From: a virus | Taxonomy: Duplodnaviria > Heunggongvirae > Uroviricota > Caudoviricetes | DNA length: 17,256 bases | Virus record (IMG/VR): IMGVR_UViG_2698536348_000007 | Coordinates: 1 to 17,256 of that record | Reading direction: 5' to 3' (one strand) | In this document: in pieces, positions 1 to 17,256 of the stretch | Layout: each line of letters opens with the position of its first letter | How positions within the stretch are numbered: position 1 is the stretch's first letter | Made by a program: the position numbers and the translations under genes | The notes under the pieces: model-generated | The model's input: the letters and a program-made list of their open reading frames with translations, nothing else | Database searches by the model: none | What the model was told of the DNA's origin: nothing

Positions 1-2
1 GG

Positions 3-629
3 GGAAAAACGAGTATTTTTAGTCATCCTGTTTACCTCTTTCTCAGGAAGTTTAGTCTCCAGGATTCCCGGGGCGGTTCAGGTCGTTTCATTGAGGAAAA
101 ACACTTCTTCAAACTTGAAGGTGAAACTTTACGTGAGTTCAAGCACAGAGTAGCTTTTAACTACTCTGTGAAAATTGCCCGTAACGTTCGCTCCCTCATC
201 CTCTGGACAGAACGAGGCGCAGCCCGTCACGCCAAAATGCTAGAAACCGATCAGGCGTGGGATGTGTTCGAAAAACTGGAAGACTGCTATTTCAGCCAGT
301 GCGAGAAAAATACTGGCAAACAAGAGAAGAAGCCCAACGGGCTTTCCGCAAAAGAAACAGACAGCCTTGTATGGCTGTGGGATTATGCCAACCGCTCACA
401 GGCATTGTTCCGTGAGTTGTATCCCGCATTAAAACTGATTCAGTCTGGCTATTCCGGCATATGCCACGACTACGGCTATGAGTTCTCGTATATCATCGGG
501 AGGGCGAGGGGCGTTTTAATTAATCACACGCGGGATATAGATATTTATGAGCCTGACGGGCCGACGAACCTTCTGGCATGGGAAAGGCTTAAGAACAAAG
601 AGTTGCCGCCTTCACTGCATCGCTACTGA
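3..629 (+). CDS. 5'-truncated phage early-region protein of unknown function (possibly antirepressor-like); start codon lies upstream of the window
   Basis: Reading frame is open from the window edge (no in-frame stop from position 3 to the TAC-TGA at 627-629). The first in-frame start codon in the window is GTG at 168 and has no Shine-Dalgarno, so the real start is probably upstream. A strong intrinsic terminator follows. Confidence 0.45.
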
Positions 630-646
630 CAATTGACAACTTAACA

Positions 647-670
647 AACCCAGCTTCGGCTGGGTTTTTT
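647..670 (+). terminator. Rho-independent terminator after the first ORF
   Basis: Hairpin aacccagc-ttcg-gctgggtt followed by a T-run (664-670), 18 nt after the stop codon. Confidence 0.6.
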
Positions 671-697
671 ATTGCTGAATTTTCAATATGAGAGGAC

Positions 698-1426
698 ATG
701 ACAATGAATGAGCTGATAAATAGCAGCATCATCAAAATGACCAGCATTGAAATCGCTGAGTTGGTGGGGAGTCGTCCAGATAACGTAAAAATATCAATAG
801 AGCGCCTGGCTGAATCTGGAGTTATTCAACTTCCTGCATTGCAGGTTTTCGAAAAAATCAATAACTTAGGACTGCGCCGTAGTGTCGAGGCTTACGTCTT
901 CGAAGGCGAACAAGGTAAGCGAGACAGCATTATTGTCGTCGCCCAATTGTCGCCGGAATTCACCGCTCGTCTTGTTGACCGTTGGCGAGAGCTTGAAGGG
1001 GCAACCGCGAAAATACCACAAACCTTTTCTGAGGCATTGCGCCTTGCGGCCGACCTTGAAGACCAGAAGGCTGAACTGGAGAAACAGCTTGCTCTCGCAG
1101 CACCTAAAGTTGAGTTTGCCGATCGAGTTGGCGAGGCCAGCGGAATTTTGATTGGAAACTTTGCAAAGGTTGTTGGTATTGGTCCAAACAAACTGTTTGC
1201 GTGGATGCGCGATCACAAAATCCTTATTGCTTCAGGTTCCCGGCGCAATGTGCCAATGCAGGAATATATGGATCGCGGCTATTTCACAGTGAAAGAAACA
1301 GCGGTCAATACAAATCACGGAATACAGATCTCGTTCACCACAAAAATCACCGGGCGTGGTCAACAGTGGCTGACCAGAAAGCCGCTCGATAACGGAATGC
1401 TGAAAGTAACAGGGGAGGCTGCTTAA
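698..1426 (+). CDS. roi: Roi-like phage DNA-binding/antirepressor protein with C-terminal KilAC (ANT) domain
   Basis: 242-aa ORF. The C-terminal segment FAKVVGIGPNKLFAWMRDHKIL...YMDRGYFTVKE...TTKITGRGQQWL matches the KilAC/ANT antirepressor domain as I recall it; position upstream of ybcO-rusA-Q fits Roi of HK022/H-19B-type phages. The ATG at 704 has better spacing to the AGAGGA Shine-Dalgarno than the ATG at 698, so the true start may be 704. Confidence 0.8.
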   Translation: MTMNELINSSIIKMTSIEIAELVGSRPDNVKISIERLAESGVIQLPALQVFEKINNLGLRRSVEAYVFEGEQGKRDSIIVVAQLSPEFTARLVDRWRELEGATAKIPQTFSEALRLAADLEDQKAELEKQLALAAPKVEFADRVGEASGILIGNFAKVVGIGPNKLFAWMRDHKILIASGSRRNVPMQEYMDRGYFTVKETAVNTNHGIQISFTTKITGRGQQWLTRKPLDNGMLKVTGEAA

Positions 1427-1716
1427 TGGCTAACCTACGCAAAGAAGCGCGCGGCAGAGAATGCCAGGTACGGATTTACGGCGTATGCAATGGCAATCCT
1501 GAAACGACAGTTCTGGCACATTACCGGATGGCTGGAATTTGCGGAACGGGAATGAAGCCTGACGACCTGATCGGTGCATGGGCTTGTAGTGACTGCCACG
1601 CGGAGATCGACCGACGCACCCGAATTCTCGACAACAACGACGCCAGACTTTACCACCTGGAAGGCGTGATCAGGACGCAGGCGATATTGCTGAAGGAGGG
1701 GAAGATTAAGTCATGA
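1426..1716 (+). CDS. ybcO: YbcO-like DUF1364 protein (putative nuclease) of the nin region
   Basis: 96-aa ORF, Cys/His-rich (CQVRIYGVCNG...CSDCHAEID), resembles DLP12 YbcO from memory. Start overlaps the roi stop (TAATG) and is preceded by AGGGGAGG. Confidence 0.75.
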   Translation: MANLRKEARGRECQVRIYGVCNGNPETTVLAHYRMAGICGTGMKPDDLIGAWACSDCHAEIDRRTRILDNNDARLYHLEGVIRTQAILLKEGKIKS

Positions 1717-2075
1717 ATGAATATGAGTTTGTGCTTCCCTGGCCGCCGACGGTGAATACCTACTGGCGAAGACGGGGAAGCCAGTACTACATCAGCGATA
1801 AAGGCCAGAAATACCGAAAAGACGTACAGCAAATCATCCGGCAACTCAGATTAGACATTTTCACTAAATCACGACTTCGCATCACAATTATTGCTGAACC
1901 ACCAGATTCCCGCCGTCGCGACCTCGATAACATCCTGAAAGGTTTACTCGACTCTCTTATCCACGCCGGATTTGCGGAAGACGACGAGCAATTCGATGAC
2001 ATTCGCGTAATTCGCGGCGTGAAAGTGCCTGGCGGTAGAGTGGGGATAAAAATCACCGAACTGGAGAACATTTGA
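1713..2075 (+). CDS. rusA: Holliday junction resolvase RusA
   Basis: 120-aa ORF with hallmark RusA motifs (LPWPPTVNTYW..., RRRDLDNILKGLLDSL). Strong Shine-Dalgarno GAAGGAGGGG upstream; start overlaps the ybcO stop (ATGA). Confidence 0.9.
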   Translation: MNEYEFVLPWPPTVNTYWRRRGSQYYISDKGQKYRKDVQQIIRQLRLDIFTKSRLRITIIAEPPDSRRRDLDNILKGLLDSLIHAGFAEDDEQFDDIRVIRGVKVPGGRVGIKITELENI

Positions 2076-2269
2076 TGAATGCTAAAATTCAAACGATACC
2101 TGAATTACTGATCTGCACCAGGGGAAATCAGACAGAAGTCGCCAGAATACTGAACTGCAATCGTGCTACAGTCAGAAAATACATTGATGATAAAGATGCG
2201 AAAAAGCACGCCGTCGTCAATGGCGTCCTTATGGTTCATCGCGGATGGGGTAAAGATACTGATGCGTGA
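2075..2269 (+). CDS. ninH: NinH-like small DNA-binding protein
   Basis: Strong resemblance to lambda NinH ([38 protein letters not shown]). The ORF track starts at TTG 2072; the ATG at 2075 overlaps the rusA stop (TGATG) and is the more likely start. Confidence 0.8.
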
Positions 2270-2696
2270 TATCCGGCAGGTTCTTGAGCGCTGGGGGGCA
2301 TGGGCGGTAAATAACTATGAGGATGTTACATGGTCGCCCATTGCTGCCGGATTTAAGGGACTGATCCCCGAAAAAGTAAAATCACGTCCACAGTGCTGTG
2401 ACGATGATGCGATGGTGATATGCGGGTGCATAGCCCGCCTTTACCGGAACAATCGCGATCTGCATGACTTGCTGGTTGATTACTACGTGTTGGGGGAGAC
2501 GTTCATGGCGCTGGCACGGAAACATGGGTGCTCTGACACCTGTATAGGTAAACGCCTTCACAAAGCGGAGGGGATTGTTGAAGGCATGCTGATGATGCTG
2601 GGAGTGAGGCTTGAGATGGATCGGTATGTTGAGCGTGAATTGCCGGGAGGGAGAAGCTCTGTATTTTATCAGCGAAAAAATAGTTTACGATCGTAA
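2262..2696 (+). CDS. Q: Late-gene antitermination protein Q (phage 21/82 QuuD-like family)
   Basis: From the ATG at 2262 the product ([25 protein letters not shown]...[16 protein letters not shown]...) matches Q/QuuD-type antiterminators from memory. The upstream extension of the track ORF (2163) overlaps ninH and is rejected. Position immediately before the late promoter/lysis region fits. Confidence 0.85.
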
Positions 2697-2720
2697 AAAT
2701 CTGCATATCATGATAAGAGT
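2684..2720 (+). promoter_or_regulatory. Candidate late promoter PR' / Q-utilisation region at the end of Q
   Basis: -35-like TTTACG (2684-2689), about 16-bp spacer, -10-like TATCAT (2706-2711), with a second -10-like GATAAG just downstream. In lambdoid phages PR' sits directly after Q. Hexamer matches are weak, so the exact placement is uncertain. Confidence 0.3.
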
Positions 2721-2741
2721 GGTTACATTGCCACGCAGCCG

Positions 2742-2766
2742 AACCCGCCGATGCGCGGGTTTTTTT
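2742..2766 (+). terminator. Intrinsic terminator 45-70 nt downstream of Q (candidate tR' or Q-gene terminator)
   Basis: GC stem cccgc/gcggg (2744-2748 / 2755-2759) followed by T7 (2760-2766). Confidence 0.5.
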
Positions 2767-2946
2767 GTACCCAGAATCCTGTGAGCTATACGGAAAGTAC
2801 ACAGAAAGGAAGGTACGACCGCAATTAATAACAAAATCTTAAAAATCTCATATGGCACTATTAGTTTTCTAAATATTGTATATTTTAAGTATTGCAGGAT
2901 AACCCTGTAACGAAGTTTGCGTAACAGCATTTTGCTCTACGAGTTT

Positions 2947-2976
2947 GCCAGCCTCCCCTGGTGGCTGGCTTTTTTT
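2947..2976 (+). terminator. Intrinsic terminator (alternative tR' candidate)
   Basis: 7-bp stem gccagcc/ggctggc (2947-2953 / 2963-2969), 9-nt loop, followed by T7 (2970-2976). Confidence 0.55.
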
Positions 2977-3094
2977 GTATCCGTTCAACGGGAATGTTAC
3001 ATACCTCACAATTAAGTCAGTTGAATGTTGTCTGCCCGGATGAGAATTTGTTAGAAAAAACTGCATGGTGAATCCCCCTGAGCGGAGGGGCGAC

Positions 3095-3120
3095 TGGTGA
3101 CGGTATAATCTCTGATTATC
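3095..3120 (+). promoter_or_regulatory. Promoter-like element: consensus -10 TATAAT (3104-3109) with a downstream -10-like repeat GATTAT (3114-3119)
   Basis: Perfect TATAAT hexamer in a non-coding interval; upstream A-tract (3054-3060); -35 is poor. A -10-like repeat just downstream is the architecture of sigma70 promoter-proximal pause sites used by Q antiterminators. Confidence 0.3.
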
Positions 3121-3208
3121 AAAACGAGAATGACGCGGGTTTAGTGGCACCGGGCTGAACTCACCGGGAGGCACCCGGCACCATGCAATGGCACATAGCG
3201 CCACTCTC

Positions 3209-3234
3209 CAGCCCCTCTCCGGAGGGGCTTTCTT
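3209..3234 (+). terminator. Intrinsic terminator-like hairpin closing a candidate ~115-nt small transcript
   Basis: Perfect 7-bp stem gcccctc/gaggggc (3211-3217 / 3222-3228) with tetraloop tccg, followed by tttctt. Confidence 0.45.
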
Positions 3235-3240
3235 ATGGAC

Positions 3241-3268
3241 AAAAAAGCCCGCGCTGGGAGACGCGGGC
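3241..3268 (-). terminator. Minus-strand intrinsic terminator convergent with the previous hairpin
   Basis: On the + strand: A6 (3241-3246) then 7-bp stem gcccgcg/cgcgggc (3247-3253 / 3262-3268). Read on the - strand this is a hairpin followed by U6. Confidence 0.4.
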
Positions 3269-3461
3269 GGCAAGGAATGAACAATGAAACGTGAAGTAAT
3301 ATTTCAGCTGGCGAATAATACCCCATAGTAATCACTCTGCGCAACTGCGCGACCTTTTTCGAATTGCGGGCTGTAGTCTCCCTTCTGCCATTGTCCTGTA
3401 ACTTCCGGACTTCAGCCCGCTCCTTATTTTACTCACAATATTATCCCGGCCGGGAGGATTC

Positions 3462-5372
3462 ATGGCATTTAAACACTATGATGTTGTCAGGGCGGCGTCG
3501 CCGTCAGACCTTGCGAAACGAATAACTCAAAAACTGAAGGAAGGGTGGCAGCCTTATGGTAGTGCGCTGATTTCGACAGCTGGTTATGGTGCGGAGTTCA
3601 TCCAGCCAGTTGTGAGTGAGGGGAGCATCTCATCACCAGAGGAGCCAGGCAACCGTCCGACGACCTCAGCGCCTTCTGTTGCGCCAGAATATTACTATGT
3701 GATCGCGCTTGCTGGTCAGTCCAATGGTATGTCATACGGTGAGGGACTGCCATTACCGGATACATTCGACAGCCCTGATCCACGTATTAAACAGTTAGCG
3801 CGTCGCAGTACGGTGACACCGGGCGGTGCAGCATGCAAATATAACGACATCATTCCGGCGGACCATTGTCTGCATGATGTGCAGGACATGAGCCGTCTTA
3901 ACCATCCGAAAGCGGACCTGTCAAAGGGGCAGTACGGAACCGTGGGGCAGGGGCTGCATATCGCCAAAAAACTGCTGCCGTTTATACCGGCGAATGCGGG
4001 CATTCTGCTGGTTCCGTGCTGTCGTGGTGGTTCAGCGTTCACCACCGGAGCTGATGGCACATACAGTGACGCGAGTGGCGCCTCGGAGAATTCAACCCGC
4101 TGGGGTGTGGACAAGCCGCTGTATAAGGACCTTATCGGTCGAACAAAAGCGGCACTGGAGAAGAACCCGAAAAATGTGCTGTTTGCCGTGGTGTGGATGC
4201 AGGGGGAATTTGATTTTGGCGGTACGCCGGCAAATCATGCCGCACAGTTTGGTGCGCTGGTTGATAAATTCCGTGCAGACCTGGCGGATATGGCAGGCCA
4301 GTGCGTCGGTGGCTCTGCTGGCGGTGTTCCCTGGATATGCGGGGACACGACGTATTTCTGGAAGCAGAAGAACGAATCCACGTACCAGACGGTGTACGGC
4401 AGCTATAAAAATAAAACGGAAAAGAATATCCATTTCGTACCGTTCATGACCGATGAGAACGGGGTGAATGTGCCGACGAACAAACCGGAAGAAGACCCGG
4501 ACATTCCGGGTATCGGTTATTACGGTTCGAAATGGCGTGACAGCTCAGCCACCTGGACGTCACAGGACAGGGCGAGCCATTTCAGTTCATGGGCTCGCCG
4601 TGGGATTATTTCCGACCGTCTGGCAACGGCGATTCTGAGCTGCGCGGGTAAGTCTTCTGCGTTTGTTAATGGTACTGCCGGGGTGGTTGTTCCAGACAGA
4701 CCGGTTACCACCTCAGAGTCTGTAATTTTTTACGATGCCAAAAAAGCTACAGACAATCAGCTGAAACCCTATGGCTGGGACGGTGTGTATGGCAGGCGCA
4801 CACTGGTTGATGACAGCGGCAATAAAGCTCTGCGAATTGAGAAAAATAACAGCGCGAAATCCTGGTCAATGTACTGTGATATTGCTGCAGACAAGGCAAA
4901 ACTTTTACTGGAAAAAGGCGGGGAAATTGCTGTCCGGTTTAAAATCCCCGAAAACGTCAATCTTGAGACAACCAGAAACAAGTATGCCTTTGGTTTGTAC
5001 TGGCGAATAGCGGAATGGCCGGGTGAGGGTGGTGAAGGCCATCTGAGTTCTTTCTTTGTCCAGACAGATAAAGCCAGTATTAATGTTGCATACCATCATA
5101 CAGTTAATCAACAAAAAGAACTTGGCACGTTTGGCGCATTCGACCATGACTGGCATACGCTTGCATTTAAATTTAAGGGCAGTAACAGCATTAATGTTAC
5201 TCCGGTGCTTGATGGTGTGGATGGACAGGCGTTTGACCTGGTGAAATGGGCCAATACTGCTAATGGACTCAACAGGTTTGTCATTACGGATATTACAGGT
5301 AGTGCAGAAACCTACCCTGTACTTATTGATACGGTGGAAGTTAAAGCAAACAAAGCTGGAGCAGCCGCATAA
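3462..5372 (+). CDS. nanS-p: NanS-p-type prophage sialate (9-O-acetyl-N-acetylneuraminate) esterase, YjhS-like; N-terminal DUF1737-like domain plus SASA/SGNH esterase domain
   Basis: 636-aa ORF with GGAGG Shine-Dalgarno 6 nt upstream. N-terminus MAFKHYDVVRAASPSDLAKRITQKLKEGWQPYG and the ALAGQSNGMSYGEG...VVWMQGEFD esterase core match the nanS-p/yjhS family found downstream of stx in Stx phages, from memory. Sits in the Q-to-holin moron locus. Confidence 0.85.
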   Translation: MAFKHYDVVRAASPSDLAKRITQKLKEGWQPYGSALISTAGYGAEFIQPVVSEGSISSPEEPGNRPTTSAPSVAPEYYYVIALAGQSNGMSYGEGLPLPDTFDSPDPRIKQLARRSTVTPGGAACKYNDIIPADHCLHDVQDMSRLNHPKADLSKGQYGTVGQGLHIAKKLLPFIPANAGILLVPCCRGGSAFTTGADGTYSDASGASENSTRWGVDKPLYKDLIGRTKAALEKNPKNVLFAVVWMQGEFDFGGTPANHAAQFGALVDKFRADLADMAGQCVGGSAGGVPWICGDTTYFWKQKNESTYQTVYGSYKNKTEKNIHFVPFMTDENGVNVPTNKPEEDPDIPGIGYYGSKWRDSSATWTSQDRASHFSSWARRGIISDRLATAILSCAGKSSAFVNGTAGVVVPDRPVTTSESVIFYDAKKATDNQLKPYGWDGVYGRRTLVDDSGNKALRIEKNNSAKSWSMYCDIAADKAKLLLEKGGEIAVRFKIPENVNLETTRNKYAFGLYWRIAEWPGEGGEGHLSSFFVQTDKASINVAYHHTVNQQKELGTFGAFDHDWHTLAFKFKGSNSINVTPVLDGVDGQAFDLVKWANTANGLNRFVITDITGSAETYPVLIDTVEVKANKAGAAA

Positions 5373-5377
5373 TTGCT

Positions 5378-5414
5378 AAAAAAAGCCGCCAGCGGCAGGA
5401 ATGGAAGCTGGCGG
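5378..5414 (-). terminator. Minus-strand intrinsic terminator directly after the nanS-p stop
   Basis: + strand: A7 (5378-5384) then 8-bp stem ccgccagc/gctggcgg (5386-5393 / 5407-5414) with a 13-nt loop. No T-run follows on the + strand, so it works as a terminator only for leftward transcription (it may still stabilise the 3' end of nanS-p mRNA). Confidence 0.4.
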
Positions 5415-5511
5415 AGGTAATCCCAATGGAGAATGTAAAGAAAAGATGCTTTCGTACATTGGTTTTTTAAATGAAAACAATTCTCATTGTCAACCATAAC
5501 GGTAAGAAATT

Positions 5512-5694
5512 ATGACATTTATTCATCAGGTGATGCTGTACTTCTGTACGGCGGTCTGTGTGCTGTATCTTCTTTCGGGTGGGTACAGGGCTGTGCGCGA
5601 TTTCTGGTGCAGGCAGATTGATAAAAGGGCCGCTGAGAAAATCAGCGCCAGTCAGTCAGCCGGAAGCAAACCCGAAGAACCCGTTACTCCTTAA
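5512..5694 (+). CDS. Hypothetical small membrane protein (60 aa; one predicted transmembrane helix followed by a charged tail)
   Basis: ORF MTFIHQVMLYFCTAVCVLYLLSGG... Weak Shine-Dalgarno. A 14-codon upstream ORF (5471-5515, MKTILIVNHNGKKL) ends with a TGA overlapping this ATG (ATGA). A promoter-like TTGTCA (5487-5492) lies just upstream. Coding status is uncertain. Confidence 0.3.
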   Translation: MTFIHQVMLYFCTAVCVLYLLSGGYRAVRDFWCRQIDKRAAEKISASQSAGSKPEEPVTP

Positions 5695-5719
5695 CAACCC
5701 CTTTCAGCGAGAAAATCCC

Positions 5720-5965
5720 ATGTCAGAAATCACATCCCTGGTCACTGCAGAGGCAGTGAAGGAAGTCCTGCGCTCTGAAGAAGTCCGGAGCGCACTGAAA
5801 CAGAAACTTCGCCAGAATCTTGAGTCGCGTCTTGATGCAGAAGTGGATGCCATTCTGGATGAGCTGCTGGGCGTAGCAGCGGTTCCTGAGCCGGAAGGTA
5901 TCGCGGGTGACGGGAGTGCTTCAGATGGCGGTGAACCTACACCTGACAGCGACATGATGATGTAA
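5720..5965 (+). CDS. Hypothetical acidic protein (82 aa) upstream of the holin
   Basis: [54 protein letters not shown]... has protein-like helical composition and an acidic C-terminus. Weak GAGA Shine-Dalgarno. The antisense ORF 5704-5955 is low-complexity and rejected. Confidence 0.4.
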
Positions 5966-6041
5966 GCATGCGCAAGGGACCATCGGTGTGTGCCGGTGGT
6001 CTTTATATTGTTGTGAGCTTCCGGATTGCGGGAGACGGGGT

Positions 6042-6257
6042 ATGTACCAGATGGAAAAAATCACAACAGGTGTGTCATACACCACGTCAGCGGTGGGAAC
6101 GGGCTACTGGTTCCTGCAGTTGCTGGACAGGGTTTCCCCGTCTCAGTGGGCGGCAATAGGCGTGCTGGGGAGTCTGCTGTTTGGGCTGCTGACGTACCTG
6201 ACTAACCTGTATTTCAAAATCAAAGAGGACCGGCGTAAGGCGGCGCGGGGAGAGTAA
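6042..6257 (+). CDS. S: Class II holin/antiholin, S21-type (pinholin-like) with dual start motif
   Basis: From the ATG at 6042 the product [71 protein letters not shown] closely resembles phage 21 S (from memory). Two in-frame starts (M1 and M4 at 6051) are typical of holin/antiholin pairs. GGGAGACGGGG Shine-Dalgarno upstream. The longer track ORF from 5988 is rejected. Confidence 0.85.
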
Positions 6258-6261
6258 GCTG

Positions 6262-6795
6262 ATGAGCAGGAAATTCCGCTATGGTTTATCAGCGGTCGTT
6301 CTGGCGCTGATTGCTGCGGGCGCTTCTGCGCCTGAAATCCTCGACCAGTTTCTTGACGAAAAAGAAGGTAACCACACCACGGCATACCGTGATGGTGCGG
6401 GTATCTGGACTATCTGCCGCGGTGCCATCCTGGTGGATGGCAAACCTGTCGTTCCGGGCATGAAGTTGTCGAAGGAAAAATGCGACCGGGTTAACGCCAT
6501 TGAGCGTGATAAGGCGCTGGCATGGGTGGAGAAAAACATCAGAGTGCCACTGACCGAACCGCAGAAAGCGGGCATCGCGTCATTCTGTCCGTACAACATC
6601 GGGCCTTCGAAATGCTTCACCTCAACGTTTTACCGGAAACTGAACGCAGGAGACCGGAAAGGTGCATGTGCTGAAATCCGCCGATGGATATATGACGGCG
6701 GCAGGGACTGTCGGAACCGCTCAAATAACTGTTACGGGCAGGTATCGCGGCGTGACCAGGAGAGCGCGCTGGCGTGCTGGAGTATCGACAGATAA
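6262..6795 (+). CDS. R: SAR endolysin (R21-type, T4-lysozyme-like muramidase, GH24)
   Basis: 177-aa ORF with a Gly/Ala-rich N-terminal signal-anchor-release segment (YGLSAVVLALIAAGASAPE) and catalytic signature EGNHTTAYRDGAGIWTICRG (E...D...T). Immediately follows the holin; GGGGAGAG Shine-Dalgarno. Confidence 0.9.
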   Translation: MSRKFRYGLSAVVLALIAAGASAPEILDQFLDEKEGNHTTAYRDGAGIWTICRGAILVDGKPVVPGMKLSKEKCDRVNAIERDKALAWVEKNIRVPLTEPQKAGIASFCPYNIGPSKCFTSTFYRKLNAGDRKGACAEIRRWIYDGGRDCRNRSNNCYGQVSRRDQESALACWSIDR

Positions 6796-6879
6796 GCAGA
6801 ATATTCTGCTGAAAAATGCCGTTGACCAACGCGAACGGATAACACGAAATCCTGCGAACTGGCAAAATTTAAGTGAGTA

Positions 6880-6926
6880 AAAGTAAAAACCCCGTTTGTT
6901 GGCAGCAAGCGGGGTTTTGTGTTTCT
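6880..6926. terminator. Bidirectional intrinsic terminator between endolysin and Rz
   Basis: 9-bp stem ccccgtttg/caagcgggg (6890-6898 / 6906-6914, one G-U pair) with 7-nt loop, flanked by an A-rich tract upstream (6880-6889) and a T-rich tract downstream (6915-6926). Confidence 0.5.
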
Positions 6927-7015
6927 GACCTTGAATAAGGCAAGGGAGAAATTATGGGTAGGGAGGTTCTTTCCCTGTGAGGAAGTATAAAAGATTCTTT
7001 CTGAGGTTGTCCATT

Positions 7016-7129
7016 ATGAAAGGCATTGAGGTGGAGACGCCAGCAAGTCTGGATTTAACAAGAGCGGCAGCTTTTGCCATTCGTATTGTGGCAATTGCTG
7101 TTCTGGTCTGGGCAATCCGTTGGTGGTGA
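7016..7129 (+). CDS. Hypothetical 37-aa C-terminally membrane-anchored peptide, translationally coupled to Rz
   Basis: ORF MKGIEVETPASLDLTRAAAFAIRIVAIAVLVWAIRWW, not in the supplied track (below 60 aa). GAGG 8 nt upstream of the ATG. Its TGA (7127-7129) is 1 nt before the Rz ATG (7131). Coding status unproven. Confidence 0.3.
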   Translation: MKGIEVETPASLDLTRAAAFAIRIVAIAVLVWAIRWW

Positions 7130-7130
7130 T

Positions 7131-7589
7131 ATGAATCGTGTGCTGTATGGCGTGCTTATTGTCCTGCTGCTTGGTTGTGGATCGCTGTGGCTGGCAACAG
7201 ACCATTACCGTGATAACGCCATCACCTACAAAGAGCAGCGAGATGATGCGAAGACAAAACTCAGCCAGGCGAACGCCACCATTGCTGACATACAGCAGCG
7301 CCAGCGTGATGTTGCTGCACTCGATGCCAGATACACCAGGGAGCTTGCTGATGCTAACGCGACTATTGAAAGTCTCCGTGCTGATGTTTCTGCTGGGCGT
7401 AAGCGCCTGCAAGTCGCCGCCACCTGTGCAAAGTCAACGACCGGAGCCAGCGGCATGGGCGATGGAGAAAGCTCAGGACTTACAGCAGATGCTGAACTCA
7501 ATTATTACCGTCTCCGAAGTGGAATCGACAAGATAACCGCGCAGGTTAACTACCTGCAGGAGTACATCAGGATGCAATGCCTCGATTAA
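7131..7589 (+). CDS. Rz: Rz i-spanin (inner-membrane spanin subunit)
   Basis: From the ATG at 7131: MNRVLYGVLIVLLLGCGSLWLATDHYRDNAITYKEQRDDAK...RDVAALDARYTRELADA closely parallels lambda Rz (N-terminal TM helix, then HYRDNAITYK). The track ORF start at 7074 is an upstream extension without support. Confidence 0.85.
   Translation: MNRVLYGVLIVLLLGCGSLWLATDHYRDNAITYKEQRDDAKTKLSQANATIADIQQRQRDVAALDARYTRELADANATIESLRADVSAGRKRLQVAATCAKSTTGASGMGDGESSGLTADAELNYYRLRSGIDKITAQVNYLQEYIRMQCLD
7351..7536 (+). CDS. Rz1: Rz1 o-spanin lipoprotein, embedded in the +1 frame of Rz
   Basis: ATG at 7351 with GGGAG 8 nt upstream. Product MLTRLLKVSVLMFLLGVSACKSPPPVQSQRPEPAAWAMEKAQ... has a lipoprotein signal peptide, lipobox-like VSAC and the proline-rich mature region typical of Rz1. 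Entirely inside Rz, as in lambda. Confidence 0.7.
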   Translation: MLTRLLKVSVLMFLLGVSACKSPPPVQSQRPEPAAWAMEKAQDLQQMLNSIITVSEVESTR

Positions 7590-7593
7590 CAGA

Positions 7594-7618
7594 GCCAGCT
7601 CAATCGCTGGCCTTTTTT
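7594..7618 (+). terminator. Intrinsic terminator after Rz/Rz1
   Basis: Stem gccagc/gctggc (7594-7599 / 7606-7611) with 6-nt loop, followed by T6 (7613-7618). Confidence 0.6.
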
Positions 7619-7669
7619 ATGAGGAGAGATATAACCTGAATCAATGCCAGTGCATTATCAACAAATGGA

Positions 7670-8251
7670 TCACTGGGTAAGCTCGTTTGGTTTTAAATGT
7701 CCGTCGAGAATCAGATTGTGATTTTCCCGATGCAGAACCAGTGTGCCCATATAATCAGGTTTAAATCTCCATCCATTCATTTTTTTTGCAATTCTGGACA
7801 GACAGTGATTATGTGTGAAAATCACAGTAACATGATCTGATTTTGATATTTTAAGGATATTATTTACTGCGTTATCATCACATGTCGATATGTCCGGAAT
7901 AGTTGCTGTCTTACCTCCCGAAAAAAAAGTGGCTGTCTGCATTGTTCGGAGTGTGTCTGTAGAATAGAGACTGTAGTATGGAAACATTCTTCTGAATTTA
8001 TCTCCATATTGTTGAGCTTTGTTAGCTCCGTTTACTGTGATTCCCTCATGTGCTGAAAGACATATTCTTTGGGAGCGATCGCATCTTTCCCCATGCCGGA
8101 TGAGAAAAATAATGGGATGTTTCTGGTTAATCTCAGTGACATCGTTCACATCAAGTCTGACTGGAGTTCTTACAATGTATATGATGGATACAGAAACGAT
8201 TATGACAAGTAAAAATATAAGAAGAGATTTTGTTAGCGTTTGATTTAACAT
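7670..8251 (-). CDS. Ais/PmrG-family lipopolysaccharide core heptose(II)-phosphate phosphatase homologue (histidine-phosphatase superfamily) with N-terminal signal/anchor; prophage cargo gene
   Basis: Minus-strand ORF. Motifs IRHGERCDRS (RHG catalytic motif), GITV.G, LYSTDTLRT.QTA, IFTHNHCL and FKPDY align with E. coli Ais as I recall it. Hydrophobic N-terminus LLIFLLVIIVSVSIIYIV. The start at 8251 (MLNQTL..., AAGGGA Shine-Dalgarno 7 nt upstream) is preferred over the track start at 8284. Opposite orientation to the flanking phage genes, in the position lambda uses for bor. Confidence 0.75.
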   Translation of the reverse strand: MLNQTLTKSLLIFLLVIIVSVSIIYIVRTPVRLDVNDVTEINQKHPIIFLIRHGERCDRSQRICLSAHEGITVNGANKAQQYGDKFRRMFPYYSLYSTDTLRTMQTATFFSGGKTATIPDISTCDDNAVNNILKISKSDHVTVIFTHNHCLSRIAKKMNGWRFKPDYMGTLVLHRENHNLILDGHLKPNELTQ

Positions 8252-8305
8252 ATAAATTCCCTTGTCTGTGTTGAAAATGGGCATTATTATGCGTAAATCT
8301 TATGT

Positions 8306-8319
8306 AATCCTTAAGGATT
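8306..8319. promoter_or_regulatory. Perfect 14-bp palindrome AATCCTTAAGGATT in the promoter region of the Ais-like gene
   Basis: Exactly self-complementary, 22-35 bp upstream of the first in-frame ATG (8284) of the minus-strand gene, next to a CATAAT -10-like hexamer. Contains CTTAAG half-sites reminiscent of PmrA/BasR boxes (CTTAAT-like), which regulate chromosomal ais. Confidence 0.3.
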
Positions 8320-8853
8320 GTCTGACGTGGTGATATGACGCGAAATACAGTGGGTACACAGAATGCTGTGAACAACGACGAAATGGGCATTGGTAGCGGT
8401 ACTGGTGCTTTTTTTATTGGTTGGTTGCTCAAGTCTTGATAAAGCGCGTTAGCTTTTTGGTATTGCCTCTTAGGTCTGTAAAATTGCCGACGGTGTCCGG
8501 CAGTGCATGCAGGGCTGATCGTCTATGAGAACAGAATATATTGCTAAAAATGAAGTGTGCGTCAATGCTTATAAAGCATGCAATTCTGTATTTCTAACTA
8601 TTCAATAAAATAAATTCTTTCTGTCGCAGTGAATATACAAATGTTGATCAGCGCTCGATGTGGCGACGGGTTTCTATATCAGGAGACTTTGGCATTTATC
8701 CGCGAGGCAGCCTATCTGGTGCTGTAGTGGAATGAAGCGGATATAACCTAAATAAGGTTAAACATTAATCAGACATGGCTCTGCTGTGTGAAATCTGAAA
8801 ATTTACAGCAGTCATTGTGCATCAGTTTTTAACAGAGAACGTCAGAAGGTGAC

Positions 8854-9669
8854 ATGGCAAAGCTGGACTGGAAAAAGCTGGAGCAGGCATTTCGACGCGA
8901 ACATGTCAAAACCGGCATAAAGCTTCAGGACTGGTGCCGTCAGAACAATATCAGTTATGACACGGCTCGGCGGTACATTAAACTGCGCAAACACTCCCCC
9001 AGAAATACAGAGAAAAGTGCGCAGAAAAATGCGCAAATTGATGATCAAAAAAGTGCGCAGAAATCTGACGGCAACTCCAGTCATGACGAGCCTTCAGGCG
9101 ATGATGGTTGTGATGAAAAATGCGCAAATTTGGCAGAAACGAAACGGACTCGTGGTTCCAGACTTTTGCCACCTTCAAATGCTTTTTCTCAGCGTAACAC
9201 CCACGCCGTCAGACACCGTGGATACGCGAAGTATCTCGAGGCAGATAACCTCATAGATGATGCAGTCGGAATGGAACTTGCCGATGAACTGGTGTTTACC
9301 CGGGCCCGCGCACTTTCAGTAACAGGAACACTGAAAAAAATGTTCGCCGACCTGAAAGAGGCGGCTGACGTGGAAACCCGCGTTGCTCTGTACGACAAAA
9401 TACTCAAAGCTGAACAGGCTCTTGACCGGAATATTGCCCGTATCGAGTCAATTGAACGCTCATTGCTGACGCTGGACGTTCTGGCTGAAACAGCACCAAA
9501 ACTTCGTGCTGACCGGGAAAGAACCAACGCTGCCAGAGATAAACTCAGAGCGGAAACCGATATTCTGACCAGCCAGCGTCGGGGCGTTGTTACGCCTGTC
9601 AGTGACATCGTGTCATCGCTGCATGAAATGAGTAATTCGGGGAGACTGGATGACATTCCGGAAGAATGA
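8854..9669 (+). CDS. Terminase small subunit (putative)
   Basis: 271-aa ORF immediately upstream of, and overlapping, the large terminase. N-terminal HTH-like segment (KLQDWCRQNNISYDTARRYIK) and coiled-coil C-terminus are typical of small terminases. Assigned mainly by synteny. Confidence 0.65.
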   Translation: MAKLDWKKLEQAFRREHVKTGIKLQDWCRQNNISYDTARRYIKLRKHSPRNTEKSAQKNAQIDDQKSAQKSDGNSSHDEPSGDDGCDEKCANLAETKRTRGSRLLPPSNAFSQRNTHAVRHRGYAKYLEADNLIDDAVGMELADELVFTRARALSVTGTLKKMFADLKEAADVETRVALYDKILKAEQALDRNIARIESIERSLLTLDVLAETAPKLRADRERTNAARDKLRAETDILTSQRRGVVTPVSDIVSSLHEMSNSGRLDDIPEE

Positions 9670-11356
9670 ACCGCGATGTGATGAACCGTCAGAAATGACA
9701 GAGGCCGAACAACGTCTGTTCATCATGACTAAACTGAGCAATCCCTGGTGGCGGCTCAATCATCTCTACAAGATACAGAACGAAAAAGGTGAGCTGGTCA
9801 CCTTCAGAATGCGACCGGCGCAGCGCCAGTTGTTCCGGAGCATGCACAATAAAAATATTATCCTGAAAGCACGCCAGCTGGGGTTTTCCACGGCCATTGA
9901 TATTTATCTTCTCGACCAGGCATTATTCATACCGCATCTCAAATGCGGGATTGTCGCTCAGGATAAACAGGCTGCCAGTGAAATTTTCCGCACCAAAATT
10001 GCTGTACCGTTCGATCATCTTCCTGACTGGCTGAGAGCCTCATTCACCATCGTTGAACGTCGTAGCGGAGCCAGCGGTGGCTATATCCTGTTTGGGCACG
10101 GCTCGAGTATCCAGGTGGCAACCTCATTCCGTTCAGGTACGGTGCAGCGCCTGCATATCTCAGAGCACGGCAAAATTTGCGCAAAATATCCGGCTAAGGC
10201 GAAAGAGCTGCGAACCGGTACACTTAATGCCGTCTCTGATGAGTGCATTATTTTTGATGAATCCACTGCTGAAGGTGTGGGTGGTGATTTTTACGAGATG
10301 AGTAACCGGGCACAGGAAATCACTGCATCAGGGCTGGCGCTGACGCCACAGGATTATAAATTCCATTTTTACGCCTGGTGGCAGGATCTCAAATACAGCG
10401 CCAGAGTGCCGGAAAGCGGACTTAAGCTGTCACGGGAAAAAACAGCGTATTTTTCTGCGGTTGAAAAAGCAATGAACATCACGCTTACCGATGAGCAGAA
10501 ACACTGGTACATCTGCAAGGAAACTGAACAGCGTGAGGAAATGAAGCAGGAGTTTCCCTCAACACCACAGGAGGCGTTTCTGACGTCCGGACGACGGGTG
10601 TTCAGTGCGGAAAGCACGCTGCAGGCAGAGTCATTCTGTTCGCCACCGCTGATTGTTTATGACATTGAACCGGTTACAGGAACGAAGACCAAAGCGCAGT
10701 CTCTGCGTGACGGGAATAAAGCCGAACAGCACCGGACGCTGATGAATTATCTGCTGGTCTGGGAGCTACCGGATCCGGATGAAGAGTATGTATGCGGAGC
10801 GGATACCGCTGAGGGGCTGGAGCACGGAGACCGCTCATCGCTGGATATCATCAGATGTAGTAATGGTGAGCAGGTAGCCCACTGGTTTGGTCATCTCGAT
10901 GCGGAGCTTTTCGCTCATCTCATTGCGCAGGTCTGCCGTATGTACAACAACGCGTTTGTGGGGCCGGAGCGTAACAATCACGGACATGCCGTTATCCTGA
11001 AACTCCGGGAACTCTATCCGACGCGTTATATCTACAACGAACAGCACCTTGACCAGGCATATGACGACGATACGCCCCGTCTTGGCTGGCTGACAACCCG
11101 CCAGAGTAAACCGGTCCTGACTGAGGGAATGAAAACGCTGCTGAATAACGGCCTGTCGGGGATCCGCTGGACGGGCACATTATCAGAAATGAACACCTAC
11201 GTTTATGACGCGAAAGGCTCCATGAATGCACAGGAAGGCTGTTTTGATGATCAGCTTATGAGCTACATGATTGCCCAGGAGATGCGCGCCAGAATGCCGG
11301 TGAGGGTAAGACAGAAAACGGATAAACGCAGAACCACACACTGGATGGCTCACTGA
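9650..11356 (+). CDS. Terminase large subunit
   Basis: 568-aa ORF with GGGGAG Shine-Dalgarno 5 nt upstream of the ATG at 9650, overlapping the end of the small-subunit gene. Followed directly by the portal (stop/start overlap TGATG). Alternative starts at 9695 and 9725 cannot be excluded. Confidence 0.8.
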   Translation: MTFRKNEPRCDEPSEMTEAEQRLFIMTKLSNPWWRLNHLYKIQNEKGELVTFRMRPAQRQLFRSMHNKNIILKARQLGFSTAIDIYLLDQALFIPHLKCGIVAQDKQAASEIFRTKIAVPFDHLPDWLRASFTIVERRSGASGGYILFGHGSSIQVATSFRSGTVQRLHISEHGKICAKYPAKAKELRTGTLNAVSDECIIFDESTAEGVGGDFYEMSNRAQEITASGLALTPQDYKFHFYAWWQDLKYSARVPESGLKLSREKTAYFSAVEKAMNITLTDEQKHWYICKETEQREEMKQEFPSTPQEAFLTSGRRVFSAESTLQAESFCSPPLIVYDIEPVTGTKTKAQSLRDGNKAEQHRTLMNYLLVWELPDPDEEYVCGADTAEGLEHGDRSSLDIIRCSNGEQVAHWFGHLDAELFAHLIAQVCRMYNNAFVGPERNNHGHAVILKLRELYPTRYIYNEQHLDQAYDDDTPRLGWLTTRQSKPVLTEGMKTLLNNGLSGIRWTGTLSEMNTYVYDAKGSMNAQEGCFDDQLMSYMIAQEMRARMPVRVRQKTDKRRTTHWMAH

Positions 11357-13500
11357 TGAAAAATGAAACTAATACCATGGCGACGAAAAACGACAACGGA
11401 GCCACGCCGCGTTTTTCTCAGCGCCAGTTACAGGCGCTTTGTTCTGATATTGACAGTCAGCCTAAATGGCGCGATGCCGCAAACAAGGCCTGTGCGTATT
11501 ACGATGGTGACCAGTTGCCACCAGAAGTTCTTCAGGTACTGAAAGATCGCGGTCAGCCGATGACCATCCATAACCTCATCGCGCCTACCGTTGATGGTGT
11601 TCTGGGTATGGAGGCCAAAACGCGGACTGATCTGGTGGTGATGTCAGACGAGCCAGATGATGAAACTGAAAAACTGGCTGAAGCTATTAATGCTGAATTT
11701 GCCGATGCATGCCGCCTTGGCAATATGAATAAAGCCCGCTCTGATGCCTATGCGGAACAAATCAAGGCGGGGCTCAGCTGGGTGGAGGTCAGACGGAACA
11801 GCGATCCGTTCGGGCCTGAGTTTAAGGTGTCTACTGTCAGCCGGAATGAAGTGTTCTGGGACTGGCTCAGCCGGGAAGCTGATTTAAGTGACTGCCGCTG
11901 GCTGATGCGCCGCCGCTGGATGGATACCGATGAGGCAAAAGCCACATTCCCGGGAATGGCTCAGGTTATCGATTATGCCATTGATGACTGGCGTGGTTTT
12001 GTCGATACCACGGTTACTGAAGGCCAGCCCAGTCCGTTGATGAGTGCATGGGAAGAGTATCAGTCATGGGATCGTAAGGAGAACGAATGGCTTCAGCGTG
12101 AACGCCGTCGTGTGCTGCTTCAGGTGGTTTATTACCGTACATTCGAGCGTCTTCCGGTGATTGAACTCAGTAATGGACGGGTGGTGGCCTTTGATAAAAA
12201 TAATCTGATGCATGCGGTGGCTGTGGCATCCGGGCGGGTGCAGGTGAGAGTCGGGCGGGTAAGTCGTATTCGTGAAGCCTGGTTTGTGGGACCGCACTTT
12301 ATTGTGGATCGCCCCTGCAGTGCGCCGCAGGGGATGTTCCCGCTGGTTCCCTTCTGGGGATACCGGAAGGATAAAACCGGGGAGCCTTACGGGCTGATTT
12401 CCCGGGCCATTCCGGCACAGGATGAGGTGAATTTTCGTCGTATAAAACTGACGTGGTTGCTTCAGGCCAAACGCGTGATTATGGACGAGGATGCCACCCA
12501 GTTGTCAGACAACGAGCTGATGGAGCAGATCGAGCGTCCGGATGGCATTATTAAACTGAATCCGGCCCGAAAAAATCAGAAAAGCGTTGCTGATGTTTTC
12601 CGGGTTGAACAGGATTTTCAGGTTGCCAGCCAGCAGTTTCAGGTCATGCAGGAGTCGGAAAAACTTATCCAGGACACGATGGGGGTTTATTCCGCATTTC
12701 TCGGGCAGGATTCAAATGCATCGTCCGGCGTGGCGATCAGCAACCTGGTGGAGCAGGGAGCCACAACCCTTGCCGAAATCAACGATAACTACCAGTTTGC
12801 CTGCCAGCAGGTGGGAAGGCTGTTGCTCGCTTATCTTCTCGATGGCCTGAAAAAGCGGCGTAATCATGCGGTGGTGATTAATCGTGATGATCGCCAGCGT
12901 CGCCAGACCATTGTTCTCAATGCTGAAGGTGATAATGGTGAACTGACCAATGATATTTCAAGGTTAAATACACATATTGCGCTGGCTCCTGTTCAGCAGA
13001 CACCGGCGTTTAAGGCACAGCTTGCACAGCGAATGTCAGAGGTTATTCAGGGGCTGCCACCTCAGGTGCAGGCCGTCGTGCTCGACCTGTGGGTTAACCT
13101 TCTGGATGTGCCGCAGAAACAGGAATTTGTCGAACGTATTCGTGCGGCGCTGGGGACACCAAAATCACCGGATGAGATGACCCCGGAAGAGCAGCAGGCC
13201 GCTCAGCAGCAACAGGCCCAGGAGCAGCAACAACAGGAACTGCAGATGCGCGAAATGGCAGGCCGGGTGGCTAAACTGGAAGCAGAAGCTGCCAGGGCAC
13301 AGGCAGCTGCGCAACGGGATAATGCTGGCGCACAACGGGATGTCGCCGCGGCACAGGGACAGCGTTATGTGGATGCGCTCAACCAGGCGCATACGGCAGA
13401 AATCATTACCGGCATACAGAATATGGAACAGGAGCAGGAAGCTCTTCAGCAACAGATGCTACATACACTACAACAGCGGATGCATGAATTGCCGCTATGA
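11356..13500 (+). CDS. Portal protein (P22-like, with C-terminal Gln/Ala-rich helical extension)
   Basis: 714-aa ORF following terminase. Size and C-terminal coiled-coil (EEQQAAQQQQAQEQQQQELQMREMAGRVAKLEAEAARAQAAAQ) resemble the P22 gp1 portal barrel; synteny terminase-portal-scaffold-coat. Confidence 0.8.
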   Translation: MKNETNTMATKNDNGATPRFSQRQLQALCSDIDSQPKWRDAANKACAYYDGDQLPPEVLQVLKDRGQPMTIHNLIAPTVDGVLGMEAKTRTDLVVMSDEPDDETEKLAEAINAEFADACRLGNMNKARSDAYAEQIKAGLSWVEVRRNSDPFGPEFKVSTVSRNEVFWDWLSREADLSDCRWLMRRRWMDTDEAKATFPGMAQVIDYAIDDWRGFVDTTVTEGQPSPLMSAWEEYQSWDRKENEWLQRERRRVLLQVVYYRTFERLPVIELSNGRVVAFDKNNLMHAVAVASGRVQVRVGRVSRIREAWFVGPHFIVDRPCSAPQGMFPLVPFWGYRKDKTGEPYGLISRAIPAQDEVNFRRIKLTWLLQAKRVIMDEDATQLSDNELMEQIERPDGIIKLNPARKNQKSVADVFRVEQDFQVASQQFQVMQESEKLIQDTMGVYSAFLGQDSNASSGVAISNLVEQGATTLAEINDNYQFACQQVGRLLLAYLLDGLKKRRNHAVVINRDDRQRRQTIVLNAEGDNGELTNDISRLNTHIALAPVQQTPAFKAQLAQRMSEVIQGLPPQVQAVVLDLWVNLLDVPQKQEFVERIRAALGTPKSPDEMTPEEQQAAQQQQAQEQQQQELQMREMAGRVAKLEAEAARAQAAAQRDNAGAQRDVAAAQGQRYVDALNQAHTAEIITGIQNMEQEQEALQQQMLHTLQQRMHELPL

Positions 13501-13520
13501 ATATCCTGAACTTAACGGAA

Positions 13521-13544
13521 CCCCGTCATCGTACGGGGTTTTTT
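13521..13544 (+). terminator. Intrinsic terminator/attenuator between portal and scaffold genes
   Basis: 6-bp stem ccccgt/acgggg (13521-13526 / 13533-13538) with 6-nt loop, then T6 (13539-13544), 21 nt after the portal stop. Confidence 0.5.
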
Positions 13545-13657
13545 GTCTCCGGAGATAAGCGTTCCGGGAGCGGTGCGCTTATTCGCGGGGGCAGCGATAA
13601 GCCTTATTTACTCAACCATTCGGATCTGTCCGATAAACAGACCATGCGGAGTTATTT

Positions 13658-14665
13658 ATGGATTTTGAATTTACGGGTGAAGAAACCCCGGAACAACTGG
13701 AAAAAATGCTGGAAGGGCTTGGAGATGTGGATATTGACGGTCACGAACAGGACGGCGTGACAGAGGCCGCCACAGAAAATCATGCGGATGAGGCAGCACA
13801 GACACAGACGGGCGATAACACTGCGGCACCGACGCCGGATGCCAGTGCTGAGCAGACGCAGGACGTGAAGGAGCCGGAGGCGAAGGGTGTGCTCACCCGC
13901 GATGGTAAACACGTCATTCCCTATGAAGTCCTTGAGGCTGAACGTTCCGGTAAGCAGCGGGCCGAACAGGAAGCCGCACTTCTTCGGGGACAGATAGCCG
14001 AAGAAAAACGCCTGGTTGAACTGCTGACGTCTCAGATCCACCAGGCCGGTATGAAACCCGCACCGTTACCGGAAAACGAAAAAATCTCTGATGAGAAGAT
14101 TGCCCGTATCAGGGAGATGTATCCGGAAATTGGCGACGCGGTGGCTTCGCTTATCCGTAAAAATAACTATCTCCAGTCCCGTGTTCAGCAATCAGCACAG
14201 CAGGCAGAAGGTCATGGTGGTGAGGATTTATCACCGGTTCTTGATGCAATGAATGACGTGCCGGTGCTGAAAACGTGGCAGAACTCCGATCCGGATCGCT
14301 TCTCGGTTGCCGTATCCATCGACGGGAAGCTCCAGAATGACCCCGCATGGAAAGACAAACCGCTCACTGAACGTTTCGCCGAAGTGGCCCGCCGTACGCA
14401 GCTCGCTTTCGGTGAAGCCAGTGAGCCGCCTTCTGATGACAAGGCAGACAACACGGATATCCGGAAAACGGCGGAAGAAAAAGTGAAAGCCGCTGAACGG
14501 GAGATGGCAGTGCCTGCTTCCCCGTCAGAGCTTGGCAACACGGCTTCCGTCGGAACCGGTGATAATTTTGAACGGTTACTTGGTGCTTCTCATTCAGAGG
14601 CAGAGGCGATTATGCGCGGTATGACGAATGCTGAAATAGACGCGCTTCTGGAGAAGCTCGGGTAA
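13658..14665 (+). CDS. Scaffolding protein (putative)
   Basis: 335-aa highly acidic, helix/coiled-coil-type ORF between portal and major capsid genes; GCGGAG Shine-Dalgarno 6 nt upstream. Assigned by composition and synteny. Confidence 0.65.
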   Translation: MDFEFTGEETPEQLEKMLEGLGDVDIDGHEQDGVTEAATENHADEAAQTQTGDNTAAPTPDASAEQTQDVKEPEAKGVLTRDGKHVIPYEVLEAERSGKQRAEQEAALLRGQIAEEKRLVELLTSQIHQAGMKPAPLPENEKISDEKIARIREMYPEIGDAVASLIRKNNYLQSRVQQSAQQAEGHGGEDLSPVLDAMNDVPVLKTWQNSDPDRFSVAVSIDGKLQNDPAWKDKPLTERFAEVARRTQLAFGEASEPPSDDKADNTDIRKTAEEKVKAAEREMAVPASPSELGNTASVGTGDNFERLLGASHSEAEAIMRGMTNAEIDALLEKLG

Positions 14666-14688
14666 CTTACTGAAGGAGAACTGAAGTA

Positions 14689-15903: not shown

Positions 15904-15919
15904 TTTTTCCTTTCCTCAT

Positions 15920-15942
15920 GCCGGGTTATCGCCCGGCTTTTT
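15920..15942 (+). terminator. Intrinsic terminator after the major capsid gene
   Basis: Stem gccggg/cccggc (15920-15925 / 15932-15937) followed by T5 (15938-15942). Confidence 0.6.
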
Positions 15943-15957
15943 CAGGAGTCATTAATT

Positions 15958-16350: not shown

Positions 16351-16363
16351 TATAAACCTTCCG

Positions 16364-16386
16364 GCCCGCGTCATGCGGGCTTTTTT
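16364..16386 (+). terminator. Intrinsic terminator after the 130-aa head-module gene
   Basis: Stem gcccgc/gcgggc (16364-16369 / 16375-16380) followed by T6 (16381-16386). Confidence 0.6.
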
Positions 16387-16400
16387 ATCCGGGGAATTAT

Positions 16401-17196: not shown

Positions 17197-17256
17197 GCAG
17201 CTATCTGATGATATTTTTCCCTGAAGGCTGCCGGGGAGATATTCCCCAGACGAGAG

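Follow-up and report, generated by a model that had tools for sequence, protein, structure and literature searches.

A probable 933W/phi24B-type late-control segment with an empty cargo slot upstream of the prophage esterase gene nanS-p

The stretch of DNA analysed here (the window; 17,256 nt, positions 1 to 17,256 of the IMG/VR virus record IMGVR_UViG_2698536348_000007) represents the late half of a lambdoid prophage, as judged from Pfam matches and the RefSeq annotation of near-identical prophages, and the region of interest within it extends from the late antiterminator gene Q to the esterase gene nanS-p. Q (2262..2696, + strand, ATG start at 2262) specifies a 144-aa protein of the Q933 type (PF06530, E 3.8e-50), has the same coordinates in the RefSeq annotation of the ML35 and O104:H4 prophages, and is identical in 142 of its 144 residues to Q of Sakai prophage Sp5 and of phage phi24B. 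It is followed by a gap of 765 bp (2697-3461) and by nanS-p (3462..5372, + strand; 636 aa; Pfam, PDB and RefSeq matches), which is flanked in the late region of the prophage by Q on one side and by the lysis genes on the other. The order Q-gap-esterase-DUF1378-DUF826-holin-lysozyme is that of the Shiga toxin (Stx) phages Sp5, phi24B, Lyz12581Vzw and phiSTEC1589-Stx1c, and comparison with these phages, together with Pfam and RefSeq, upheld the coordinates and the order Q-cargo site-holin that had been given in a preliminary description of the locus. The closest relatives are a prophage of strain ML35 (99.98% identical over 80-17157) and a non-Stx prophage of O104:H4 strains 2011C-3493/C227-11 (98.5% identical over 1426-17157), both of which are 100% identical to the window across the gap. 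The region very probably combines the late-control segment of a lambdoid prophage of the 933W/phi24B type (Sepvirinae-like, short-tailed) with the first of its late genes, the cargo slot being empty.

The gap had been presented as 765 bp of non-coding DNA. While its length and lack of a coding sequence (CDS) hold, it is not featureless: judged from the sequence, it is non-coding for proteins only, and it contains a PR'/qut/tR' region and two predicted small RNA (sRNA) genes. The sigma-70-like late promoter PR' (-35 TTTACG, 16-nt spacer, -10 TATCAT; 2684..2711, + strand), identified by promoter scan, overlaps the end of Q, maps exactly onto the annotated phi24B promoter (21225-21252) and is invariant in sequence in five phages. 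Further downstream on the + strand are a putative Q utilisation (qut) site at 2725..2732, which is an annotation transfer only, from the homologous position of the phi24B 'qUT' (21266-21273); a first leader hairpin of eight pairs with a T-run, a putative terminator, at 2741..2769 (phi24B terminator 21285-21307); and the intrinsic terminator tR' at 2947..2976 (phi24B terminator 21488-21516), both hairpins being recovered by terminator scan. Since PR', qut and both terminators map one to one onto the phi24B annotation, and since Q differs from its Sp5 and phi24B counterparts in only two residues, a Q933-type antiterminator with its PR'/qut/tR' region, a feature by which Stx-converting phages are recognised, may be regarded as present in the window.

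With a start placed according to the -10 hexamer and the published length, the transcript from PR' to tR' would comprise 258 nt (2718..2975, + strand); it is identical to that of O157 Sakai Sp5 at 250 of 258 positions (96.9%) and is predicted to be a homologue of the StxS sRNA precursor (StxS-L). In Sakai Sp5 and Sp15, transcription from PR' yields an RNA of 258 nt, which RNase E cuts at GU|AUU (+173) to give StxS, a stable Hfq-bound RNA that activates rpoS (PMC7547250). In agreement with that report, the motif GTATT at 2889-2893 puts a putative RNase E cut at +173 counted from 2718. The 3' part that would correspond to processed StxS (2891..2975, + strand) is identical to Sp5 at 83 of 85 positions, both differences being located in the terminator loop, and its predicted fold (-29.8 kcal/mol, z -3.3) is more stable than those of shuffled controls. 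In contrast to the Stx1 and Stx2a phages from which StxS was described (PMC7547250), the window derives from a prophage without stx, and the reported repression of stx1 would have no cis-linked target here. An Rfam match to Qrr at 2876-2978 (23 bits against a threshold of 50) was rejected as sub-threshold and is explained by the tR' terminator hairpin.

The second predicted sRNA gene is STnc100 (RF02076; 3035..3240, + strand), which possesses its own terminator (3210-3229, followed by a T-run) and was matched by cmscan over model positions 1-206 of 206 with 165.1 bits (gathering score 47; E 3.5e-38); its predicted fold (-77.7 kcal/mol, z -2.9) is likewise more stable than those of shuffled controls. 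Identity of the window copy to those in the five related loci compared (phages or prophages, four of them with an intact or disrupted stx) is 81-97%. In Stx2 phages STnc100 is reported to lie 75 nt 3' of stx2 (PMC12370729), and a relationship to the PasD sRNAs, which are neighbours of esterase genes, is also reported (bioRxiv 10.64898/2026.05.13.724894). Its position just upstream of the esterase gene is common to the window and the Stx phages, whereas it directly follows tR' in the former and stxB in the latter.

Several minor observations concern this part of the gap. A minus-strand terminator-like hairpin (3247..3268; eight pairs, seven of them G-C, with a T-run) stands back to back with the STnc100 terminator and, in combination with a promoter-like minus-strand site (3468-3440), could delimit an RNA of approximately 190 nt (terminator 3268-3247) divergent from nanS-p, for which no Rfam match was obtained. 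An anti-hemB match at 3210-3270 (19 bits against 49.5) was sub-threshold and is accounted for by the STnc100 terminator hairpin, and neither AgvB nor AsxR, the anti-sRNAs of Stx phages, was detected by Rfam at E<=1 in 1500-9000. The stretch 5373-6041, which encompasses the DUF1378 and DUF826 genes, is the location given in the literature for the PasA/PasC sRNAs, and no Rfam model matched there. Two tandem STnc100-like copies were observed downstream of the slot in phiSTEC1589-Stx1c (comparison locus L001, 3873-4390) and in E. coli FHI_NMBU_10 (comparison locus L020, 3447-3980), with 75-79% and about 91% identity to the window copy. In the former, an annotated 99-aa "hypothetical protein" overlaps the first STnc100-like copy and is probably no gene.

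The empty slot itself consists of 8 bp (TCAACGGG) at 2985..2992, immediately downstream of tR', at the site where Stx-type phages carry tRNAs and/or stxAB. Similarity of the flanks to all Stx phages stops 2-8 bases past tR', and the slot edges are conserved (...TCCGT before the cargo and AATGTTA... after it). In the Stx1c phage phiSTEC1589, flanks corresponding to 2001-2984 and 2993-5700 enclose 1760 bp of cargo, in which stx1A and stx1B with the stx1 promoter region are accompanied by a second STnc100-like copy of 75% identity. In phi296, which is without stx, the left flank extends to 2975 and the right flank starts from 2993, and the cargo of 473 bp consists of three tRNAs; in the Stx2a phages Lyz12581Vzw and Sakai Sp5, the flanks extend to 2975 and from 3006 around 1790 bp that hold a methylase fragment, three tRNAs and stx2AB. 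A further cargo type was seen in FHI_NMBU_10, where a minus-strand DUF7661 gene fills the slot after tR' (L020, 3127-3345). The slot directly 3' of tR' is therefore polymorphic, being empty or occupied by tRNAs, stx1, tRNAs plus stx2, or DUF7661.

The preliminary description had noted neither stx nor tRNAs at the locus, and this was borne out. ARAGORN detected no tRNA gene in the whole window, Rfam returned no tRNA match at E<=1 in 1500-9000, and the window has no counterpart of the 473-bp segment in which phi296 carries its tRNAs. When the A and B subunits of Stx1c and Stx2a were used as tblastn queries, the best E value anywhere was 0.03, with zero matches inside the gap. Furthermore, when the entire cargo segments of four Stx-type phages served as blastn queries (word size 7), neither stx nor the tRNAs nor the methylase fragment gave a remnant, the sole match of a cargo segment to the window being the second STnc100-like copy, and no microhomology or direct repeats were seen at the cargo break points in the alignments. 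Among the features of Stx-converting phages, stxA/stxB between tR' and nanS-p and the ileZ/argN/argO-type tRNAs that follow tR' in Stx2a phages are thus absent from the window, while 933W/phi24B-type head genes are present: the capsid protein gene belongs to the N4-gp56 family (TIGR04387, E 2.9e-22), and the major capsid protein and its phi24B counterpart show 95% identity. On account of the near-identity of Q, the Sp5-like PR' transcript and this capsid protein, the locus can be assigned, at the level of sequence, to a stx-negative and tRNA-negative relative of Stx phages.

The empty junction is not peculiar to the window. At least 30 complete E. coli genomes contain the same 765 bp at 100% identity, including the O104:H4 outbreak clone, ML35, and FORC and NCCP strains, and the 41-nt junction is present in 10 IMG/VR contigs. 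A junction-spanning query was covered to at least 80% in 110 genomes, a count which includes tRNA- or DUF7661-bearing slots joined from two matching pieces and which does not represent empty slots alone. The same junction was also found in strain 12089, whose Q belongs to another family, and, with one substitution, in strain 2012EL-2448, which has restriction-modification genes upstream and not this Q. In the latter strain (comparison locus L018, 1-2800), the PR'-tR'-STnc100-nanS-p module follows HsdM/HsdS genes and a hypothetical open reading frame (ORF) instead of a Q933-type gene, which suggests that recombination moves the module independently of the antiterminator gene. Within the phage collection, no sequenced phage record contained the empty form as a single piece. 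Shared as it is by these genomes and contigs, and by two prophages that differ in their upstream genes, the junction is an established, circulating allele that moves by recombination, and not a fresh deletion scar.

The gene downstream of the gap had been called a NanS-p-type esterase, and the domain analysis confirmed the predicted 636-aa product as NanS-p, a prophage-borne sialate O-acetylesterase. It comprises an N-terminal DUF1737 (aa 3-53, nt 3468-3620, + strand; PF08410, E 4.9e-18), a NanS-like SGNH/SASA domain (PF03629; aa 72-393, nt 3675-4640, + strand) that matches the solved structure of NanS/YjhS from E. coli (3PT5; E 3.5e-118), and a C-terminal lectin-like domain (aa 426-630, nt 4737-5351, + strand), a divergent variant of the lectin-like jelly-roll, that matches the corresponding domain of phi24B NanS-p (6YP6) at E 7e-42; DUF6645 (PF20350) was matched at aa 483-594 (E 1.6e-28). 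In the 3PT5 alignment, the predicted catalytic residues Ser87 (nt 3720-3722, + strand), within GQSN, and His373 (nt 4578-4580, + strand), within HFSS, align with S30 and H312 of the 3PT5 chain, which we take to be the catalytic Ser19 and His301 of NanS. NCBIfam returned no family for NanS-p or Q. A strong ribosome-binding site (GGAGG) lies 7 nt before the ATG, and the protein is 100% identical to WP_000874468.1 (O104:H4 2011C-3493 and ML35). The two checks by which the preliminary description could have been overturned, alignment for stx or tRNA remnants and similarity to an esterase domain, were both run, and the absence of remnants and the strong domain match left it standing.

The chromosomal NanS (YjhS; 3PT5) has a homologous SGNH/SASA domain in which the GQSN serine and the C-terminal histidine are kept, but it is without the DUF1737 and lectin-like domains and is not phage-borne. 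Conversely, vb_24B_21/gp84 of phi24B and L0105 (z1466) of 933W, from Stx2a phages, share both the position between Q and holin and the three-domain architecture, although tRNAs and stx lie upstream of NanS-p in the Stx2a phages and not in the window. At the protein level, the phi24B homologue (645 aa) is 74% identical overall, this identity amounting to about 99% over aa 1-392 and to about 37% after aa 393, where the C-terminal lectin-like domain is another variant; aa 1-60 are 100% identical and include Tyr42, Gly54 and SISSP. At the DNA level, the similarity of nanS-p to Sp5, Lyz12581Vzw and phi296 stops at window position 4648 (aa ~395), indicating a mosaic gene, and the Stx1c phage phiSTEC1589 has the same C-terminal domain type as the window.

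Esterase activity of the window protein on the O-acetylated sialic acid Neu5,9Ac2 may be expected by analogy, since all five NanS-p alleles of a Stx-phage-cured O104:H4 strain are reported in a review to be active (PMC8065619) and the protein is identical to one O104:H4 allele. The preliminary description considered the gene a host-fitness moron expressed from the late promoter, and in its strict form this would make NanS-p purely an accessory gene for the fitness of the lysogen with no role in the phage particle. A benefit to the host is indeed published, in that NanS-p alleles of EDL933 and O104:H4, including those of non-Stx prophages, confer a growth advantage on Neu5,9Ac2 (PMC8065619, PMC10462455); the same reports document NanS-p in non-Stx prophages, so that the novelty implied for such a gene does not hold. 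Late expression, too, is suggested by the sequence. The promoter scan returned no promoter-like site in the interval from the final + strand terminator-like hairpin (3338-3351) to the nanS-p start at 3462, the + strand terminators lie upstream of the gene and do not bracket it, and z1466 is reported to be strongly induced along with late genes (PMC8065619); nanS-p therefore looks like an ordinary late gene within the Q-dependent operon. It is with the restriction to host fitness that the published phi24B data conflict: gp84 is an abundant, processed virion protein whose DUF1737, resolved as a hexamer, sits on the central hexons of a T=9 capsid and is anchored there via Tyr42, the protein being cleaved near Gly54-SISSP (bioRxiv 10.64898/2026.04.10.717836). 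Given that these key residues are identical in the window, within a fully conserved DUF1737 region, and that the capsid proteins are 95% identical, the same capsid-decorating role is likely for the window NanS-p, and a function confined to lysogen fitness appears unlikely.

As regards the gap and the slot, an assignment to small proteins in place of RNAs finds some basis in the short hypothetical ORFs annotated in the homologous stretch of phage records and in the mechanical ORFs of 53-134 aa in the window gap, but it is highly improbable: RefSeq (PGAP) annotation of the identical or near-identical prophages of O104:H4 2011C-3493 and ML35 places no CDS in 2697-3461, part of the gap matches a curated structured-RNA model at 165 bits, and the resemblance of the window to the 99-aa ORF of the Stx1c phage is limited to short stretches of 100% identity and a 37% match that breaks the frame, a pattern that points to a conserved RNA and not to a protein. 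A more serious contender is a decayed Stx phage whose ancestral tRNAs and/or stxAB were either deleted or removed through recombination with a relative that lacked the toxin. The flanks are 95-97% identical to those of Stx1c, Stx2a and tRNA-only phages up to the break points, phi296 with its tRNAs and no stx could serve as an intermediate, and a preprint on the Pas sRNAs suggests repeated loss of stx beside esterase genes in chromosomes (bioRxiv 10.64898/2026.05.13.724894). Such a history is nevertheless considered rather doubtful, as even the word-size-7 search recovered no trace of stx, tRNA or methylase fragment, and as the identical 8-bp junction recurs in many genomes and in prophages with different Q or upstream genes. 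From this shared junction it follows that any loss would have been old and single, with subsequent spread by recombination, which looks the same as an ancestral empty state. Hence the designation of the locus as a "stx-negative relative or precursor" is retained for the relative, on the strength of Q, the PR' RNA and the capsid protein, while a precursor is not told from a derivative, there being no scar and a shared junction. A bolder proposal, to which we attach little probability, is that the contiguous PR'-tR'-STnc100 arrangement is the ancestral pre-toxin state, that the slot edges mark a preferred recombination point at which cargoes are captured repeatedly, and that the real lysogeny cargo of toxin-less prophages is the pair of sRNAs (RpoS activation by the StxS-type RNA, and STnc100). 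The cargoes captured may then have been three tRNAs, tRNAs with stx2, stx1 with the second STnc100 copy, and the DUF7661 gene.

For the favoured interpretation, a late-control segment with an empty slot, analogy with lambda, 933W and phi24B, together with the papers cited above, provides a scheme of expression. PR' would fire constitutively and stop at tR', giving the StxS-type RNA, and STnc100 would form a separate short transcript with its own terminator, such that in the lysogen only these two short RNAs would be made from the Q-esterase stretch. Upon induction, Q would modify RNA polymerase at PR'/qut, and the modified polymerase would pass the four + strand terminator-like hairpins (2741, 2947, 3210 and 3338), namely tR', the STnc100 terminator and the two weaker ones, to transcribe nanS-p and then the genes for lysis and for the head. 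The DUF1737 N-terminus of NanS-p would then assemble as a hexamer on the central hexons of a T=9 capsid, as in phi24B gp84, while the SGNH domain would strip 9-O-acetyl groups from sialic acids and the lectin-like domain would probably target glycans; released NanS-p would also enable growth of the host population on Neu5,9Ac2. Some points weigh against this interpretation. The transcription start site, qut and RNase E site are assigned here by homology transfer; the capsid role derives from one preprint on a homologue with a 99%-identical N-terminal part and a C-terminal domain of only ~37% identity; and the window is bounded by ends of the insertion sequences IS629 and IS600, and in its source genome the prophage may have been reduced to a remnant without induction of Q.

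All components of the locus fall into families that have been described, and for both the protein and the gap identical counterparts exist in well-studied strains; the locus is in this sense already known, and esterase loci without adjacent stx are discussed in the literature (bioRxiv 10.64898/2026.05.13.724894). The present analysis adds a corrected annotation of the gap, exact slot boundaries and a qualified use of the label "moron". In practical terms, annotation of the "empty" gap should show PR'/qut/tR' and two sRNA genes, NanS-p should be treated as a late and probably virion-associated protein besides being an enzyme of benefit to the host, and the defined pair of flanks around the slot may be used in surveys of stx cassette gain and loss. 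Beyond annotation the findings carry little weight; NanS-p of non-Stx prophages has been described and assayed and both StxS and STnc100 are published.

The remainder of the window conforms to the late half of a lambdoid prophage. Upstream of Q, antirepressor fragments (168-1426), DUF1364/YbcO (1426-1716), RusA (1713-2075) and NinH (2075-2269) were assigned from Pfam and the RefSeq annotation of near-identical prophages. Downstream of nanS-p on the + strand are the small late ORFs DUF1378 (5512-5694) and DUF826 (5720-5965; also a Pfam match), both mapped by offset from the RefSeq annotation of ML35, followed by the class II holin gene with which the lysis cassette starts (6042-6257; ML35 annotation) and the lysozyme gene (6262-6795; Pfam Phage_lysozyme and ML35 annotation). 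Rz (7131-7589; Pfam and RefSeq of near-identical prophages) precedes the genes for the terminase subunits, the portal and the N4-gp56-type major capsid protein.

Both ends of the window are formed by insertion sequences. Positions 1-79 correspond to an inverted IS629/IS1203 end, 97.5% identical to the Sakai copy, which interrupts the ant gene at 79/80, and positions of about 17158-17256 correspond to an IS600 end that interrupts a head-region ORF. Compared with the ML35 and O104:H4 prophages, only the window is interrupted in this manner; neither junction was found in a complete RefSeq E. coli genome, nor the IS629/ant junction in an IMG/VR contig, and the window prophage may thus be disrupted or a remnant. 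An IS-rich, Shigella-like genome is the probable source. Additionally, a minus-strand gene for a lipopolysaccharide core heptose(II)-phosphate phosphatase (PmrG/Ais-like; NCBIfam NF011945, E 7e-60) was identified at 7670-8284, between Rz and terminase, at the position where phi24B carries bor. This gene adjoins a stretch of low GC content (about 40%, 7501-8000) and looks like a genuine moron.

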